A DNA stretch of 64,000 bases from an uncultured Eubacteriales bacterium (lineage in GTDB: Bacteria; Bacillota; Clostridia; Christensenellales; Aristaeellaceae), in the NCBI GenBank assembly GCA_902781095.1, contig CACZHW010000010.1, positions 3,120-67,119 on the forward strand, read 5' to 3'. The stretch's first letter is position 1. Every line of letters starts with the position of its first letter. The position numbers and the translations under genes are program-made. The notes beneath the pieces were generated by a model, which saw only the letters and a program-made list of their open reading frames with translations, did not search any database and had not been told where the DNA came from. Shown piece by piece: positions 21,474 to 27,610 of the stretch.

Positions 21474-22946
21474 TTACAGCGTAACGCCGTCCTTGAAAAT
21501 GGCGATTTCGCGGTAGCCGTTCTGCTCCGCCTTCGTGTGCACCTCACCGGAAGCCAGGCGCAGCAGCCATGAGAAGAAGGCCTCCGTCGTCTCCTCCGGA
21601 TCGGCGCCCTGGACCAGAACGCCGGCATTGAAGTCGATCCAGTTCTTCTTCTTCTCGGCCAGCGCCGTGTTGGTCGCCACCTTCACCGTGGGGACCGGCG
21701 CGCCCAGCGGCGTGCCGCGGCCGGTGGTGAAGAGGATCATCTGGGCGCCCGCAGCCATCAGCGCCGTGCAGGCGCAGATGTCGTTGCCCGGCCCCTGTAC
21801 GAGATTGAGGCCCTTCTCCTGTACGCGTTCGCAGTATTTGAGGACGCCGCGCACCTCGCTGCTGCCGCCCTTCTGCGTGCAGCCGAGGGACTTGTCCTCC
21901 AGCGTGGTGATGCCGCCCGCCTTGTTTCCGGGCGAAGGATTCTCGTAGACCTCCTGGCCGTGGCGGATGAAGTACGCCTTAAAGTCGTTGATGAGGTCCA
22001 CGCACTTGCGGAACGTCTCCTCGTCCTTGCAGCGGTCCATGAGCAGCGTCTCCGCGCCGAACATCTCCGGCACCTCGGTGAGCAGCGTCGTGCCGCCGTG
22101 CCGGCAGACGAGATCGGAGATCCGCCCCAGCAGCGGGTTGGCCGTGATGCCCGAAAGGCCGTCGCTGCCGCCGCACTTGAGACCGATGATGAGGCTGGAA
22201 GCCGACACCGTCTGTCGCTTCTGCTGCGCCGCGTACGCCGTCAGCTCGTCCAGCAGCTGCATGCCCGCCTCGATCTCGTCCTCGTGCTCCTGCGTCACCA
22301 GGAATTTGACGCGGCGCTCGTCAATCTCGCCCAGCACGGGCTTGAACACGTTCAGGTTGTTGTTTTCGCAGCCGAGGCTCAGCACCAGCACGCCTCCCGC
22401 GTTGGGGTGGTGCACCATGGCGGAGAGCAGCTTCTGCGTATTGGCGTGGTCCTCGCCGAGCTGGGAGCAGCCGTATGGATGCACGAAGCAGTGGATGCCG
22501 TCCACGCGGTCCCCGTAGGCTTCCTGCGCCAGCCGTTCCAGCGTCTTCGCCGTCCCGTTTACGCAGCCCACGGTGTTGACGATCCACACCTCGTTGCGGA
22601 TACCGACGCGCCCGTCCTCCCGCACGTAGCCCTCGAAGGTCGCGCTGCGGTCCTGCGGCATGCTGCAGGGATGCGGATGATAGCTGTACTCCAACATGCC
22701 GGAAAGGTTGGTCTTCACGTTGTGGGTGTGCACCCAGCAGCCCTTGCCGATCGCCTGCGTGGCATGGCCGATGGGCGCCGCGTACTTGATGACGTTCTCG
22801 CCTTCCGCGATGTCGCGCAGGGCGAATTTATGCCCGGCGGGAATATCCTCGCAGAGTTTCACCCCGAGGATTTCTTCACCTGCCGTAAGCGGCACGAGCG
22901 CTACGGCGACGTTGTCCGCCGCGTTGATCCGGATGAATCTGTCCAT
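21474..22946 (-). CDS. uxaA: altronate dehydratase
   Basis: ORF trimmed to MDRFIRINAADNVAVAL (SAF domain) after a GGAGGAGG RBS. UxaA/GarD-like throughout. Confidence 0.9.
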   Translation of the reverse strand: MDRFIRINAADNVAVALVPLTAGEEILGVKLCEDIPAGHKFALRDIAEGENVIKYAAPIGHATQAIGKGCWVHTHNVKTNLSGMLEYSYHPHPCSMPQDRSATFEGYVREDGRVGIRNEVWIVNTVGCVNGTAKTLERLAQEAYGDRVDGIHCFVHPYGCSQLGEDHANTQKLLSAMVHHPNAGGVLVLSLGCENNNLNVFKPVLGEIDERRVKFLVTQEHEDEIEAGMQLLDELTAYAAQQKRQTVSASSLIIGLKCGGSDGLSGITANPLLGRISDLVCRHGGTTLLTEVPEMFGAETLLMDRCKDEETFRKCVDLINDFKAYFIRHGQEVYENPSPGNKAGGITTLEDKSLGCTQKGGSSEVRGVLKYCERVQEKGLNLVQGPGNDICACTALMAAGAQMILFTTGRGTPLGAPVPTVKVATNTALAEKKKNWIDFNAGVLVQGADPEETTEAFFSWLLRLASGEVHTKAEQNGYREIAIFKDGVTL

Positions 22947-23054: not shown

Positions 23055-23122
23055 CAAACAAAAACAGAGGACCCGCGGGCAGCCTTGCCGGTCGCTTGAC
23101 CTGCCCCGCTGCCGGGTCCTCT
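23055..23122 (-). terminator. Rho-independent terminator downstream of the AT-rich island gene
   Basis: Minus-sense AGAGGACCCGGCAG...CTGCCCGCGGGTCCTCT long hairpin followed by GTTTTTGTTTG. This element is GC-rich, like the host genome. Confidence 0.6.
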
Positions 23123-23145
23123 TTTATCTTATTCAATTCTGTTCT

Positions 23146-24339
23146 TTACTTAGTCCTGTTATGCATCTGTTTCCGTACTTCTTTCGCAAGTTCATCAATC
23201 ATATTAAGCTCGCCAAGGAGATACAGCTTTTCTTTCTCATAGGTGTTTTGCTTATAGGAAATCTCAATCAGTTTTAGTCCTTTCTCCTGTGCGTATGCCC
23301 TTTTCTTTTCGTCATTCAGCTGCTGTAGTCTGAAAACTGGTTCGCCACCAAATCCTTCATCTTCACTCTTTCTGTAATGCTGTGCTCCCTGGCATTCGAT
23401 CAGTGCCTTGATCTTCCCGTTTTCATATACCGCAAAATCGTAGCGGAGCAAATACTTATGTCCTGCCCCAATTAAATCCGGGAAGCTTACTTCTGCCTCA
23501 TACTCAATTCCGTATTCCCTGAAAAACTTCATTGTCCGCCATTCAAAAGACGAAGGGGCTGTAAAAAAAGAATCGTCTCTGCAATTACAACGAGCCAAGC
23601 TATAGTAACCATCCGATTTTTCTATTTCAAAATCTTTGTATCTGTATTCATATTCCTTCCCGCATAGTTTACGTCGGCATTTGAATGTTCTGTAAATAAC
23701 ATAGTATTCTTTTCGACCGGCCTTACAAAGCTCTTCTTTATCCTTCCCATAACCCTCTATTACTAATGTTGCATGGTTTTTAAACGGTAATTCATAATCG
23801 TAATCGCTACTCCGTACTCTTTCCCGTTTCTGTTCTTTCAAACCACATTCTTTGATATTCATATGAAAAAAACTGTATGGCATATTATCAAGCACTGAGT
23901 ACAACTCTTCTTCATCAGCAGTTGCATTCTTATCATTAATCAGCTGTGCATAAACATCCTTGCTTACGCTTATATTCATATAATTATTGAGTGTGTCACA
24001 GTAATTATGCCGTTTAAAAAAGAAATAAGGCGCAAGCATATAAATCTCTCTTCCACATTTACACTTACATTTGATCTTTTTTACTTTCTTAAGCTTTTCA
24101 TATATCTCAATATAATGTTCGTAATGAGAAGATACTTCTTTAGCTTTTTCAGGAGAGTCACATCTCTGTAGTTCCCTTTCTTTCATCACTCTATCTTCTT
24201 CTATTAACTTATCATATGTTTCTGAATCATTTACATCCAATTCAATAATAGTAAGACATCCTGACTTTTGTCCAACTCTTATATTTCTTATCTTGTTAGC
24301 GATGCTACTAATTCTATCTTGCCGTATTTCGTTTATCAT
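23146..24339 (-). CDS. Cys-rich (Zn-ribbon-like) protein with C-terminal Vsr/DUF559-like PD-(D/E)xK nuclease signature; horizontally acquired
   Basis: ORF trimmed to MINEIRQDR after a GGAGAG RBS. Cys motifs seen: CKCKCG, CRRKLCG, CNC. The C-terminus reads SSFEWRTMKFFREYGIEYEAEVSFPDL...LLRYDFAVYENGKIKALIECQGAQHY, which has the E..D..ExQ-G-xx-H layout of DUF559/Vsr-type endonucleases. DNA is 23-37% G+C in lines I counted versus about 67% in the flanks. Confidence 0.7.
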   Translation of the reverse strand: MINEIRQDRISSIANKIRNIRVGQKSGCLTIIELDVNDSETYDKLIEEDRVMKERELQRCDSPEKAKEVSSHYEHYIEIYEKLKKVKKIKCKCKCGREIYMLAPYFFFKRHNYCDTLNNYMNISVSKDVYAQLINDKNATADEEELYSVLDNMPYSFFHMNIKECGLKEQKRERVRSSDYDYELPFKNHATLVIEGYGKDKEELCKAGRKEYYVIYRTFKCRRKLCGKEYEYRYKDFEIEKSDGYYSLARCNCRDDSFFTAPSSFEWRTMKFFREYGIEYEAEVSFPDLIGAGHKYLLRYDFAVYENGKIKALIECQGAQHYRKSEDEGFGGEPVFRLQQLNDEKKRAYAQEKGLKLIEISYKQNTYEKEKLYLLGELNMIDELAKEVRKQMHNRTK

Positions 24340-24367
24340 TACACACTCTCTCCTATTCTTATAAAGC

Positions 24368-24396
24368 ATGATAGATTAAGTTCTTTTAAAAGTCAA
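24368..24396 (-). promoter_or_regulatory. sigma70-type promoter inside the AT-rich island
   Basis: On the minus strand: TTGACT (24396..24391), 17-nt spacer, TATCAT (24373..24368), about 28 nt upstream of the ATG. Confidence 0.5.
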
Positions 24397-24510
24397 CAAA
24401 GGCCCCTGTTCTCTGGCCGCATCCTGTCTGCCGCGTTCTCCTCCCCGGTTTCCCGCCCCTGGCTGGCAGGCTGACCCGGCAGTACGGGATCGTAATGTAT
24501 AACCCTTTCC

Positions 24511-24552
24511 GAATGAAAAGAACCCGCTGGATCTGCTGTCCATCGGGTTCTC
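24511..24552 (-). terminator. Rho-independent terminator of the CNNM/hemolysin-family gene
   Basis: Minus-sense AGAACCCG-loop-CGGGTTCT followed by TTTCATTC. Confidence 0.55.
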
Positions 24553-24563
24553 TTCTATCCTGT

Positions 24564-26449: not shown

Positions 26450-27610
26450 TCAGCCGCCGAGGACGATTTCCTTCAGGCGCTGCCCCGTCCTTCCCTCTGA
26501 CAGGTCCGCCAGGTCGATCACGCCGATATGCAGCTCGGAGGCGCGGTTGCGGACGGCGGCGTTGGCGGGTTCCGCCGTGACAATGGCCGCGCACGCCATT
26601 TCCCCGCCGAAACGGTCCCTCAGCACGGAGAGCTCATTGAGCGCCTCTGTCTTGACCTCGCCCGTCTTGCAGCTGATGAAGATAGGCGTAAGCGCACGGC
26701 TGGACATCACGTCGATCTCGTTGGAAACGCCGTCCTGCTCCTGAATCCTCTCCCAGTCGACGACGACGCTCGTCTTCACATCGTTGAAAAGCCCCGTATC
26801 GAGGCACGCCTTGTAGATGTATAGTTCCAGCACGCTGCCCACGTCGCGCAGCCAGGCGCGGATCTGCCGGTCTGTAAAGGTGAAGCTGACCGTTTCACCG
26901 ATCTCAAGGTCCGTGATCATCCCGATCTTCTGCAGCGCTTCCAGCGTCTGCGCGTCCGCACGAACCCGCTCCCGGCCGGCCTTGACTTCCGCGGGTGCCC
27001 TGACGCTCAGCGACTCATTGCTCTGGGAGACCGCCTGCATGTAGCCGATGGTCTGTGTCCACGCCCTCCGGTTCTCCAGAAAGACGGAGAAGAACGGCTC
27101 CATCAGCCACATGTAACGGGAGAGCACCGCATTATCCACCCGTCCTTTCCGCATGGAGCCGCCCGCCATGTGCAGGAAGTCCGCTACGGAGAAGCGGACG
27201 AACCCCGTATCCACGCTCGCGTAGGAGGCGCCGCGGATATTGAAGAAGCGGTTCCGTCTGCGGCTGTAGGTAAATACGGCCAGATCGTCGTGCCTTGCCG
27301 CAAACAGCCCGCCCGCAAAGAGGGCCGCGTCCGTTCCCCCGCAGATATCCAGCGCGCAGTCGCCATATTGAGCCTGTACCCGCTCCATCGCTTTCAAAAC
27401 GGCCTGCGGGTCGTTCATGTCCACGCTCTCGACGGACAGCTGGCTTTCAATCCCCCGGCCTTTCAAAAAAGCGTTCACCGACGCGCGGAGCGCTTTGTCC
27501 TCCGCCACTTTCGGCGGGGCCAGAAAGACCGTCCGCTCCGGGCGGAAGACTTCCGTCGCCAGGATGTTCTCCAGCGGCCGCTTGTCATAGAGTTCAATCA
27601 GCGTCTTCAT
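26450..27610 (-). CDS. Card1/Can2-like CARF plus PD-(D/E)xK protein (DUF1887 family), orphan
   Basis: ORF trimmed to MKTLIELYDKRP after a GGGAGGA RBS. The N-terminal Rossmann-like domain carries DICGGTD (CARF-like). The C-terminus reads NEIDVMSSRALTPIFISCKTGEV (D...SxK where D...ExK is expected). Confidence 0.65.
   Translation of the reverse strand: MKTLIELYDKRPLENILATEVFRPERTVFLAPPKVAEDKALRASVNAFLKGRGIESQLSVESVDMNDPQAVLKAMERVQAQYGDCALDICGGTDAALFAGGLFAARHDDLAVFTYSRRRNRFFNIRGASYASVDTGFVRFSVADFLHMAGGSMRKGRVDNAVLSRYMWLMEPFFSVFLENRRAWTQTIGYMQAVSQSNESLSVRAPAEVKAGRERVRADAQTLEALQKIGMITDLEIGETVSFTFTDRQIRAWLRDVGSVLELYIYKACLDTGLFNDVKTSVVVDWERIQEQDGVSNEIDVMSSRALTPIFISCKTGEVKTEALNELSVLRDRFGGEMACAAIVTAEPANAAVRNRASELHIGVIDLADLSEGRTGQRLKEIVLGG

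Follow-up and report, generated by a model that had tools for sequence, protein, structure and literature searches.

A free-standing gene in an AT-rich cassette of a rumen clostridial chromosome, probably a homing-endonuclease-type selfish gene

The cassette, its gene and its control elements

Between the intact genes for CNNM and uxaA, the window (the whole 64-kb stretch of DNA that was analyzed) carries a tract of AT-rich DNA at positions 24396–23126, with a G+C content of 29–45% compared with ~63% in the host. The original prediction had described a sharp AT-rich island here, and the composition bears this out: in 200-nt windows, the G+C fraction drops from 0.58–0.68 to 0.29–0.45 between ~23100 and 24400, and the cassette accounts for the two lowest 1-kb bins of the 64 kb (0.41 and 0.50, versus 0.53–0.72 elsewhere). 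The AT-rich DNA holds a single long open reading frame (ORF), on the minus strand, which spans 23146–24369 in the ORF list. The 397-aa reading that had been predicted starts at the ATG at 24339, and two database proteins, P0001 and P0169, agree on this start; the window protein is identical to P0169. The G+C content of the gene is 36%, in a 63% host. The elements of the cassette and its GC-rich edges are as follows.

24392..24460, minus strand: left GC-rich conserved block, AGGGGCGGGAAACCGGG...ACAGGGGCC, directly 5' of the cassette promoter; also in L145 and L094
24368..24396, minus strand: cassette promoter TTGACT-17-TATCAT (consensus scan, 10/12 matches), located precisely where the AT-rich DNA begins
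24348..24353, minus strand: ribosome-binding site GGAGAG, 8 nt 5' of the ATG at 24339, read from the sequence
23146..24339, minus strand: endonuclease ORF, 397 aa, coordinates including the stop; Cys-cluster N-terminus and Vsr/DUF2726-type C-terminal nuclease
23056..23125, minus strand: right-end GC-rich terminator hairpin with U-run (hairpin 23125–23063; inverted repeat I5)

The promoter and the ribosome-binding site had both been predicted, and we located them at 24396–24368 and 24353–24348, respectively, on the minus strand. The neighboring genes encode UxaA, UxaC, a CNNM/CBS/CorC protein, HU, a Card1-like protein and an FMN reductase. In agreement with the prediction, there is no integrase, transposase or methyltransferase among these neighbors and no tRNA within the 64-kb window; no methyltransferase occurs among the ORFs from 19.6 to 28.4 kb or within 4 kb of the gene. 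The cassette is intergenic and leaves the terminator of CNNM and the promoter of uxaA undamaged.

The hairpin at the right end, which had been taken for a host-like terminator, is real (RNA fold −43.4 kcal/mol, z = −5.97), but it cannot be regarded as host sequence alone: it accompanies the gene in L145, a second copy in another genome and a different context, which encodes a protein 51% identical to the window protein and has the same left block and hairpin on either side. The hairpin is conserved with L145, where the homology reaches 23056, and is identical in L094, a contig of the same species that lacks the gene.

The encoded protein and its domains

The motifs quoted in the original prediction (GQKSGCLTII, CKCKCG, CRRKLCG, CNC, FEW, LLRYDFAV and ALIECQGAQHY) are all present in the protein, which we divide into the following parts.

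23698..24339, minus strand: N-terminal region, residues 1–214, with the GxKxGCLTII strand and the first Cys cluster (C93, C95, C114, C165)
23554..23697, minus strand: second Cys cluster, residues 215–262, C221-x-[C/R]223-x2-C226...C251-x-C253
23671..23673, minus strand: codon 223, CGT (Arg) in the window and TGT (Cys) in the rarer allele P0001
23200..23553, minus strand: predicted Vsr/DUF2726-type PD-(D/E)xK nuclease domain, residues 263–380
23146..23199, minus strand: C-terminal tail, residues 381–397 and stop, present only in the window protein and P0002 in alignment A1

Searches of Pfam, NCBIfam and PADLOC with the whole window protein returned nothing usable, and the PDB sequences yielded chance matches only, whether queried with the protein or with a profile of either half. 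The AF2 model of the full protein has a mean pLDDT of 85, and a fold search with it against the PDB produced weak matches only; cropping to the C-terminal domain was needed, for which the model has a pLDDT >88 over the nuclease part. With this domain, Foldseek matched the Vsr–DNA complex 1cw0_A (probability 0.99, TM 0.48), the homing endonuclease I-Bth0305I (3r3p_B, third-best match, probability 0.97, TM 0.60), 1vsr (probability 0.96), TnsA (probability 0.9) and, weakly, BstEII (probability 0.6). Structures 1cw0, 3r3p and 1vsr are all among the four best PDB fold matches, with E-values of just 0.02–0.06. Furthermore, the Pfam family PF10881 (DUF2726) matches 8 of the 20 family members (best E 1.7e-5). 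The window protein does not match it even at E ≤ 5, and the phage homolog VRE9_3 CDS0002 falls just short, with 24.5 bits where the cut-off is 24.7 bits.

In the alignment of 20 sequences (A1), residues E283, D301, E315, Q317, H321 and D343 of the nuclease domain are invariant, as are F302, G318 and K346, and R347 is at least 90% conserved. The nuclease motif D-F...E-x-Q-G-x-x-H...D-x-x-R is thus present, with Gln in place of the usual Asp of E-x-D-G. The modeled fold, the DUF2726 matches within the family and the invariant catalytic-type residues support a Vsr/DUF2726-type PD-(D/E)xK nuclease fold for the C-terminal ~120 aa, much as the original prediction of a Vsr/DUF559-like nuclease had it. 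By analogy with Vsr, D301, E315 and Q317 may hold the metal ion, with H321 and D343 completing the active site. Judged from its codons, the domain is under long-term purifying selection (dN/dS 0.046 over codons 263–380, window versus L145); pS is 0.67 in the nuclease domain compared with 0.25 in the C-terminal tail.

The N-terminal region has no Pfam, PHROGs or PDB sequence match over residues 1–214 and is just 36% identical to that of P0002. Residues G23, G27, C28, C93, C95, G96, C114 and C165 are nevertheless invariant in it. When the N-terminal halves of all members were compared with PHROGs, two to three of them gave weak matches to families named 'HNH endonuclease'. In the second Cys cluster, C221, C226, C251 and C253 are invariant in A1, and this cluster is shared with gp154 of Lactococcus phage AM1 (residues 211–362). 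We propose that the N-terminal ~260 residues, with their two Cys clusters, may bind zinc and recognize a long DNA site. The enzyme would then be a candidate rare-cutting nuclease whose presumed recognition region matches no described domain. The original prediction did not recognize the full-length architecture; this holds for the N-terminal 214 aa, for which no described domain was found, but not for the C-terminal domain, which belongs to an already annotated family of >18,000 proteins. That the gene might be a fragment of a known, characterized homing endonuclease or restriction enzyme family had been named beforehand as a finding that would weaken the idea, and this partly applies here.

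Occupied, frameshifted and empty alleles

The locus alignment that the original prediction had proposed revealed a presence/absence polymorphism at one locus: the window, L001–L004 and L163–L172 are occupied, whereas L094 and L014 are empty. In the sister species (L014), CNNM is followed directly by uxaA with a 150-bp spacer, and the whole unit of left block, gene and hairpin is missing. In the same-species contig L094, the gene is absent from the same CNNM–uxaA junction, with flanks 96.6–97.8% identical, and the left block and the terminator hairpin are kept. These empty junctions support the insertion that had been predicted between the two operons: the cassette is an insertion between CNNM and uxaA. 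The ends given for the AT-rich insert agree with its composition, but the indel relative to L094 is 24395–23161, and the last ~12 codons of the gene overlap sequence that is partly retained in L094.

23161..24395, no strand: segment missing from the empty allele L094 (blastn breakpoints and base-level junctions)
24408..24507, no strand: left flank of raised divergence between occupied and empty alleles (sliding identity profile, 62–82% versus 94–100% around it)

In place of this segment, L094 has ~24–30 nt (CTGGCAATAACGATCCCCCGGCGA). It also retains ~45 nt resembling the tail of the gene, so that L094 might be what a deletion left behind and not a target. On the right, identity to the empty allele falls to 74% over 23160–23111, compared with 94–100% elsewhere. 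The spikes of divergence on the two sides of the cassette are compatible with imported (co-converted) flanks, although sequence profiles of this kind do not amount to proof.

The occupied locus is itself polymorphic. The Arg223 allele (P0169) is found on 22 contigs and the Cys223 allele (P0001) on four, and the gene lies at this single locus in all 10 of the Arg223 contigs listed (of 22) and in all four Cys223 contigs. Every other family member has Cys223, which is at least 90% conserved in A1 with the window sequence as the sole exception. A private mutation or an error was considered for C223R and rejected, as the cluster look-up identified Arg223 as the majority allele. Since the majority allele has lost a Cys kept by all other members, the window copy may be inactive. 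Independent deletions of 37 nt and 77 nt, both shifting the frame, fall in the nuclease domain. Across 15 alleles, we counted one segregating site in the 1194 nt of the ORF (none synonymous), compared with 10 in the 1260 nt of CNNM and 79 in the 1473 nt of uxaA; the low diversity of the ORF is partly by design, because the loci were retrieved by exact protein identity. An argument for a sweep based on the 5% divergence of uxaA was also discarded, as this divergence is a localized hypervariable patch. One uncultured rumen species therefore holds an allelic series of two intact alleles (Arg223 and Cys223), two frameshifted alleles and one empty allele. With this series and a diverged second copy that has the same flanks, the cycle of invasion, decay and loss and the target specificity become directly testable.

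The left block is shared by the occupied, empty and second-copy loci: by blastn, window 24460–24392 corresponds to L145 324–392 (77%) and L094 2100–2165 to L145 323–388 (89%). It is unique within the 64-kb window and among 145 loci. The flanks of L145 are less diverged than the synonymous sites of the gene, which is what a conserved target that outlasts its invaders would show. On the other hand, the block and hairpin are missing at the ends of four other family loci (L146, L147, L005 and L013). Several identities for these flanks were examined and set aside. A structured RNA or group I intron was rejected, as a search of Rfam with the left block and the equivalent loci L002, L094 and L145 gave no intron or other family at E ≤ 1, and only the terminator is structured, the left block having no predicted structure. 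A dispersed repeat was rejected because the flanks occur once in the window and in none of the other 139 loci. Transposon ends were rejected, as neither terminal inverted repeats nor a target-site duplication was found at the cassette. Matches of the flanks on viral contigs were at chance level only (L162 was inspected by eye).

A probable homing-type selfish gene and the alternatives

The window protein matches phrog_9084 ('homing endonuclease') at 3e-22 and phrog_7140 ('intron encoded nuclease') at 4e-10, and its 62 BFVD matches at E ≤ 1e-3 include a 'Group I intron-associated VSR homing endonuclease' and a 'Group I intron protein'; many others are named DUF2726, and several are auto-named 'Restriction enzyme'. 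Bacillus phage BSP12_042, 45% identical over 109 residues (266–374), sits between 'terminase large subunit 2' and 'terminase large subunit 1', and AM1 gp154 is located where the ribonucleotide-reductase region is fragmented. Virulent phages encode many of the homologs, in some cases between phage gene fragments, and some phage genomes have more than one copy of the nuclease domain. The distribution is sporadic: a word search of 5.8 billion proteins yielded only 22 clusters. Genes of the family have 25–38% G+C everywhere, and low-GC Firmicutes and mobile elements are the only settings in which this composition matches the host. Integrative or mobilizable elements carry some of the homologs beside restriction-modification (R-M) genes: P0009 adjoins an integrase on an element with a type I R-M system, and P0005 is on a MobL/ParB element with two DNA methyltransferases. 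Such a setting also fits a defense role.

We consider the cassette to be, most probably, a free-standing homing-endonuclease-type selfish gene with its own promoter, ribosome-binding site and terminator. It is most likely of a known kind, well documented here in intact, broken and absent alleles, and not a new defense system. Of the three options that the original prediction had left side by side, the homing-endonuclease-like selfish gene is clearly the best, in view of the PHROGs names, the phage gene-fragment settings and the allelic series. The cassette would have been acquired horizontally from the gene pool of low-G+C Firmicutes, phages and mobile elements. The enzyme would cut its own locus when unoccupied, namely a ~200-nt GC-rich non-coding unit between the CNNM gene and uxaA, and recombinational repair from an occupied copy would then import the gene along with adjoining sequence (~110 nt on the left, ~35 nt on the right). 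After the gene had become frequent in the population, the nuclease would no longer be maintained and would decay. We infer the cleavage specificity and the homing event, like zinc binding, and cleavage and homing by full-length members of the subfamily are activities predicted from sequence. A copy between genes of a bacterial chromosome would depend on DNA transfer for its chances to home. Much is known about free-standing homing endonuclease genes in phages and organelles, but they are rarely documented between intact bacterial chromosomal genes, and AT-rich singleton genes of this class in GC-rich genomes can be explained without invoking a defense system.

The nearest known relatives are the EDxHD homing endonucleases (I-Bth0305I, 3R3P; Hef; PMC3239194, PMC2677866), which likewise have a Vsr-like C-terminal catalytic fold and a DNA-binding part N-terminal to the nuclease, the latter presumed in the window protein. 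The family also accepts free-standing members such as Hef, and free-standing Vsr-like endonuclease genes carry their own control elements (PMC2677866), as the window gene does with its promoter and terminator. Against the composite catalytic motif (Vsr E25, D51, H64, H69 and D97), D301, H321 and D343 of the window protein follow the order of D51, H69 and D97 and are conserved in the family. However, the C-terminal-domain profile retrieved neither 3r3p nor 1vsr from all PDB sequences at E ≤ 10, and hhalign of the domain with Vsr was non-significant (probability 0.5%). In the register of that non-significant alignment, residue 266 is equivalent to E25; the window protein has Glu at this position, whereas most members have Gln. 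E283, although invariant, belongs to strand 1, and Q317 occupies the 'x' place of the EDxHD motif. The window family differs further in its extra invariant E315-x-Q317 just before the His, in having Cys clusters rather than NUMOD/HTH motifs at the N-terminus (Pfam, PHROGs) and, for the window copy, in an intergenic position in a bacterial chromosome rather than in an intron, intein or fractured gene.

The DUF2726 (PF10881)/DUF559 Vsr clade, which a survey associates with mobile elements (PMC3424549), shares DF...E-x-[D/Q]-G-x-x-H...D-x-x-R with the window family; the window protein, though, is below the Pfam threshold, has Gln for Asp in E-x-D-G and fuses the nuclease to a 260-residue N-terminal region absent from Pfam. 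The phage 'homing endonuclease' proteins of PHROG 9084/559/7140 have a clearly homologous nuclease domain and are likewise encoded by single, sporadically distributed genes, AM1 gp154 sharing the preceding Cys cluster as well. Their N-termini are of the CapR or DUF4379 type, whereas the N-terminal 214 residues of the window protein are unrelated, and their genes lie between phage gene fragments rather than between intact bacterial operons. E. coli Vsr (1CW0/1VSR) is the best structural match, with the catalytic Asp, His and Asp in the same order. In contrast to Vsr, the window protein has no significant sequence similarity to it and carries a large N-terminal extension, and its gene is sporadic and of foreign composition, not housekeeping, with no linked cytosine methyltransferase.

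Could the cassette instead be a stand-alone anti-phage or anti-plasmid nuclease, with a zinc-cluster region as the sensor of foreign DNA or a phage cue and a Vsr-like domain that degrades the DNA? A single foreign gene at a chromosomal intergenic site, a Card1-like gene 2 kb away and the R-M and methyltransferase surroundings of P0009 and P0005 would fit this. However, PADLOC-DB v2 matched the window protein to no defense family at E ≤ 1, the locus is no recognizable defense island, and there is neither a partner gene nor a mechanism of self-protection; frameshifted and empty alleles segregate in the species, and virulent phages themselves encode many of the homologs. We regard this option of the original prediction as quite unlikely. 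An orphan type II restriction endonuclease or decaying R-M remnant, its third option, is less likely by far. It draws on the PD-(D/E)xK fold, whose E-x-Q variant is known from BglII, on the auto-named 'Restriction enzyme' matches in BFVD and on the weak BstEII fold match. This reading is unsupported because no methyltransferase is nearby; moreover, the closest folds are Vsr and I-Bth0305I rather than type II enzymes, the empty alleles reflect a single-gene indel and not the loss of an R-M pair, and an unprotected frequent cutter would be lethal.

A host gene domesticated as a repair nuclease or DNA-binding regulator and kept for a cellular function would account for its high frequency (at least 26 contigs, one locus wherever contigs are listed) and for the strong purifying selection on the nuclease domain. 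Its absence from conspecific L094 and from the sister species, the frameshift alleles, a composition with no drift toward the host and the sporadic distribution make such domestication hardly credible. Finally, the mobile entity might be the ~1.4-kb unit of left block, gene and hairpin, a transposon- or MITE-like element mobilized by an enzyme encoded elsewhere, with the nuclease as cargo or accessory and L094 as an internally deleted non-autonomous copy. The same block and hairpin do bracket the gene in two genomic contexts, both ends persist in L094 although the gene is absent, they are more strongly conserved than the synonymous sites of the gene, and the sister species lacks the whole unit. 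Yet the unit lacks terminal inverted repeats and a target-site duplication, is single-copy in the window and not found in ~80 related genome loci, has a left block without predicted structure and no transposase nearby, and its ends do not accompany the four family members noted above. We therefore hold it to be unlikely.

If the homing-type reading is carried one step further, the ~200-nt GC-rich non-coding unit formed by the left block and the hairpin could represent a small transcription unit, or else a recognition module, that is conserved in rumen Clostridia and into which this endonuclease lineage specifically homes. We put this forward tentatively, as a possibility with the odds somewhat against it. 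If true, an uncharacterized zinc-cluster/Vsr-like endonuclease subfamily would have homed repeatedly into an intergenic target in bacterial chromosomes, and the full cycle of invasion, decay and loss would be visible within one natural population.

As a minor observation, a 10/13 pseudo-palindrome was noticed at the junction (...GGGGCC/ATTGTCTGGCAAT...).

An AT-rich single-gene insertion between the CNNM gene and uxaA

In 200-nt windows, the G+C content drops from 0.58–0.68 to 0.29–0.45 over ~23100–24400, and the 1-kb bins with the lowest G+C of the whole 64 kb are those of the cassette; the sharp change of composition seen in the original prediction is real and is the single such break in the window. 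A single long ORF lies within the AT-rich DNA on the minus strand, from the ATG at 24339 to the stop at 23146, and encodes 397 aa. The ORF list and translation agree with the earlier claim of exactly one gene and with all of the protein motifs quoted for it, and the proposed promoter, RBS and terminator hairpin are all present.

Expression signals of the endonuclease gene
24396–24368, minus strand: its own promoter, TTGACT-17-TATCAT
8 nt 5′ of the ATG at 24339, minus strand: RBS, GGAGAG
23125–23056, minus strand: terminator hairpin with a U-run (−43.4 kcal/mol, z = −6.0, RNA fold)

The chromosomal genes around the cassette are of ordinary kinds (UxaC, UxaA, CNNM/CBS/CorC transporter, HU, Card1-like protein, FMN reductase), and no tRNA was found in the 64-kb window, in line with the earlier remark that none accompanies the gene. 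The Card1-like endonuclease domain (PF09002, E 2.6e-8) lies in a 386-aa ORF adjoining the HU gene (26450–27610, minus strand), which may be a stand-alone cyclic-oligoadenylate-type effector.

The neighbouring CNNM protein, used to scan a set with one genome for each species, identified a close relative (L014), a roe-deer reticulum MAG of Clostridia whose CNNM is 91% identical. There, uxaA follows 150 bp after CNNM with no AT-rich DNA between them, and window 24599–23039 is represented by only 102 bp. Furthermore, a 23-mer taken from the start of uxaA and searched against metagenomes matched a sole contig, L094, which is from the same species as the window (flanks 96.6–97.8% identical) and in which 24395–23161 is replaced by ~24–30 nt. 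These two empty uxaA/CNNM junctions bear out the earlier suggestion that the cassette is an insertion. Neither terminal inverted repeats nor a target-site duplication were found at its ends. The occupied allele is common: 22 contigs carry the exact window protein (P0169) and 4 carry a variant that differs by one residue (P0001); all occurrences examined sit at the same locus, in rumen metagenomes. Tandem intrinsic terminators lie on the minus strand at 24515–24555 (after CNNM) and 23056–23125 (after the cassette), and L094 retains both, ~190 nt apart with no ORF in between.

Family and fold of the encoded protein

The whole 397-aa protein had no match in Pfam, NCBIfam or PADLOC. PHROGs matches were confined to its C-terminal 183 residues (phrog_559, 2e-23; phrog_9084 'homing endonuclease', 3e-22; phrog_7140 'intron encoded nuclease', 4e-10). 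Only 22 clusters emerged when 5.8 billion proteins were searched with a word index; in an exhaustive profile search, 87 representatives at E<1e-30 shared most of the protein length, and for the 18,376 at E<1e-3 the similarity lay chiefly in the C-terminal domain, which often follows repeated N-terminal modules. In a 20-sequence alignment, the invariant residues are G23, G27, C28, C93, C95 and G96 in the N-terminus; C221, C226, C251 and C253 in a second Cys cluster; and S264, F265, W267, E283, D301, F302, E315, C316, Q317, G318, Q320, H321, D343 and K346. Pfam DUF2726 is matched by 8 of these 20 family members, and 2 carry N-terminal DUF4379 zinc fingers.

The full-length AlphaFold model is confident (mean pLDDT 85) and gave only weak Vsr and TnsA matches in the PDB. 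With a model of residues 215–397 (pLDDT >88 in the nuclease part), the four best fold matches included Vsr–DNA 1cw0 (prob 0.99), the I-Bth0305I catalytic domain 3r3p (prob 0.97, TM 0.60) and 1vsr (prob 0.96), followed by TnsA, the E-values of the Vsr and 3r3p matches being just 0.02–0.06; sequence profiles of the protein failed to reach Vsr or 3r3p. Among predicted viral structures, there were 62 matches at E<=1e-3, with names including 'Group I intron-associated VSR homing endonuclease', 'Group I intron protein', 'Homing endonuclease', 'DUF2726' and 'Treble clef zinc finger'. A survey of PD-(D/E)XK enzymes places Vsr, DUF559 and DUF2726 with 1cw0 and 3r3p (PMC3424549). Taken together, the fold, the DUF2726 matches, the motif and the PHROGs matches uphold the Vsr/DUF559-like PD-(D/E)XK nuclease tail that had been proposed. 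The N-terminal 214 residues had no described match in Pfam, PHROGs or PDB sequences; N-terminal parts of just 2–3 family members weakly matched PHROGs named 'HNH endonuclease'.

Phage relatives, allelic series and proposed mode of action

The C-terminal half is present in 82 deposited phage genome records, most of them large virulent phages of Enterococcus, Staphylococcus, Lactococcus and Bacillus. The Bacillus phage BSP12 homolog (45% identity over residues 266–374) is flanked by 'terminase large subunit 2' and 'terminase large subunit 1', and that of Lactococcus phage AM1 lies within a fragmented ribonucleotide-reductase region next to other endonuclease genes. The N-termini of such phage proteins (CapR, DUF4379) differ from that of the window protein, and varied N-termini on one nuclease domain are the kind of modularity that homing endonucleases typically show. 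Phage contigs of 171 kb and 240 kb carry full-length relatives, which sit in a variable region that also has an HNH-domain gene. This endonuclease-rich region lies upstream of a conserved 786-aa ORF, and the phrog_2598 gene preceding the relative has a C-terminal HNH domain in one contig (L098, 5035–6171) and lacks it in the other (L099, 7241–7864).

Among bacterial relatives, two (L005, L013) are singletons amid housekeeping genes, one adjoins an integrase on a mobilisable element, another (P0005) is on a MobL/ParB element, and further ones are on Bacillus plasmids. Family genes have 25–38% G+C everywhere and are therefore conspicuous in GC-rich hosts only. P0005 (L010, 7507–9429) has a separate GNAT acetyltransferase gene on each side (157 and 137 aa), and its element also encodes two DNA methyltransferases besides MobL and ParB. 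Upstream of another homolog, P0003 (L146, 1–400), iteron-like repeats (AATATAACT ~6 times, CCACTAAT(G/T)GGAAAAT twice) suggest that this copy may adjoin a plasmid or phage replication origin.

Compared with the closest homolog, P0002 of a second genome (L145), the nuclease domain (codons 263–380) is 86% identical in amino acids with dN 0.076, dS 1.66 and dN/dS 0.046, indicating purifying selection, and the N-terminal 214 residues are 36% identical with saturated synonymous sites. Across 15 occupied alleles, segregating sites numbered 1 in the endonuclease ORF (1194 nt; none synonymous), 10 in CNNM (1260 nt), 14 on the Card1/HU side (1077 nt) and 79, patchily distributed, in uxaA (1473 nt); as the occupied loci had been selected by an exact match to the protein, the comparison for the ORF is fair for synonymous sites only. 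Strains differ in short hypervariable uxaA patches (22842–22887 and 22793–22833): two alleles (L003, L004) have 19 differences in a 45-nt stretch, and L094 varies in another patch. Outside these patches uxaA is 98–100% identical, and the pattern looks like local mosaic recombination.

The lone variable ORF site is codon 223, which is Arg in the window and majority allele and Cys in the minority allele and all other family members. Two further alleles carry independent out-of-frame deletions within the nuclease domain, of 37 nt in L173 (D301 lost) and 77 nt in L174 (E315 to H321 lost). Given Arg223 versus Cys223, these deletions and L094, the alleles in the species are intact, possibly weakened, broken and empty, and this series matches the prediction of the homing-endonuclease cycle of invasion, decay and loss.

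Could the gene instead serve its host? Of the three functions originally offered, a homing-type selfish gene, stand-alone defence or an orphan restriction component, the evidence favours the first, and we consider it probable that the cassette gene is a free-standing homing-endonuclease-type selfish gene. Defence is a weaker reading, as there is no PADLOC match and phages encode many of the homologs, in some cases between phage gene fragments. Orphan restriction fails because no methyltransferase lies nearby and the indel comprises one gene only, and a domesticated host gene is at odds with the alleles that are absent or frameshifted.

As a homing-type gene, it would work like the EDxHD/Vsr-like homing endonucleases (PMC3239194, PMC2677866): the Cys-cluster N-terminus, perhaps binding zinc, would recognise a long DNA site, the Vsr/DUF2726-type domain would cut it using D301, E315, Q317, H321 and D343, and repair by recombination would then place a copy of the cassette in empty alleles. 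However, the window protein has neither a sequence-level match to the narrow EDxHD family nor its NUMOD/HTH N-terminus, and the DUF2726 branch of the Vsr clade fits better. The gene belongs to an already known kind of system, and the value of the finding lies in the natural allelic series and an unexplained conserved flanking unit.

The GC-rich flanking unit

In L145, P0002 has a different genomic context, with another upstream gene and flanks of ~70% G+C, but the AT-rich gene is again flanked by two GC-rich pieces that match those of the window: a 69-nt left block (24460–24392; 77% identical) and the right terminator hairpin (~81%). Both are less diverged than the synonymous sites of the gene, and both are retained in the empty allele L094, whose left block is nearer to L145 (89%) than to the window. 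L094 also retains ~45 nt resembling the gene's last codons and 3′ tail. Occupied and empty alleles are 62–82% identical over 24507–24408 and 74% over 23160–23111, compared with 94–100% elsewhere. Each of the two pieces occurs once in the window and in none of the other loci compared; they had no match in Rfam, none above chance in viral contigs and no structure besides the terminator.

The simplest reading is that this ~200-nt non-coding unit is a conserved target and that the gene came with short flanks added by co-conversion. Alternatively, L094 may be what is left of an earlier copy after decay, or the mobile entity may be the whole 1.4-kb unit.

Upstream of the P0002 cassette lies a ~220-nt almost T-free, purine-rich and GC-rich tract (L145, 177–395; AT skew up to 0.95), the last part of which is the shared left block; the 141-aa Arg/Gly-rich ORF called over it is probably spurious. 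In L094 (2160–2195), a 13-nt pseudo-palindrome, ATTGTCTGGCAAT (10/13 symmetric), opens the empty-allele-specific sequence exactly at the junction and is a candidate recognition site.
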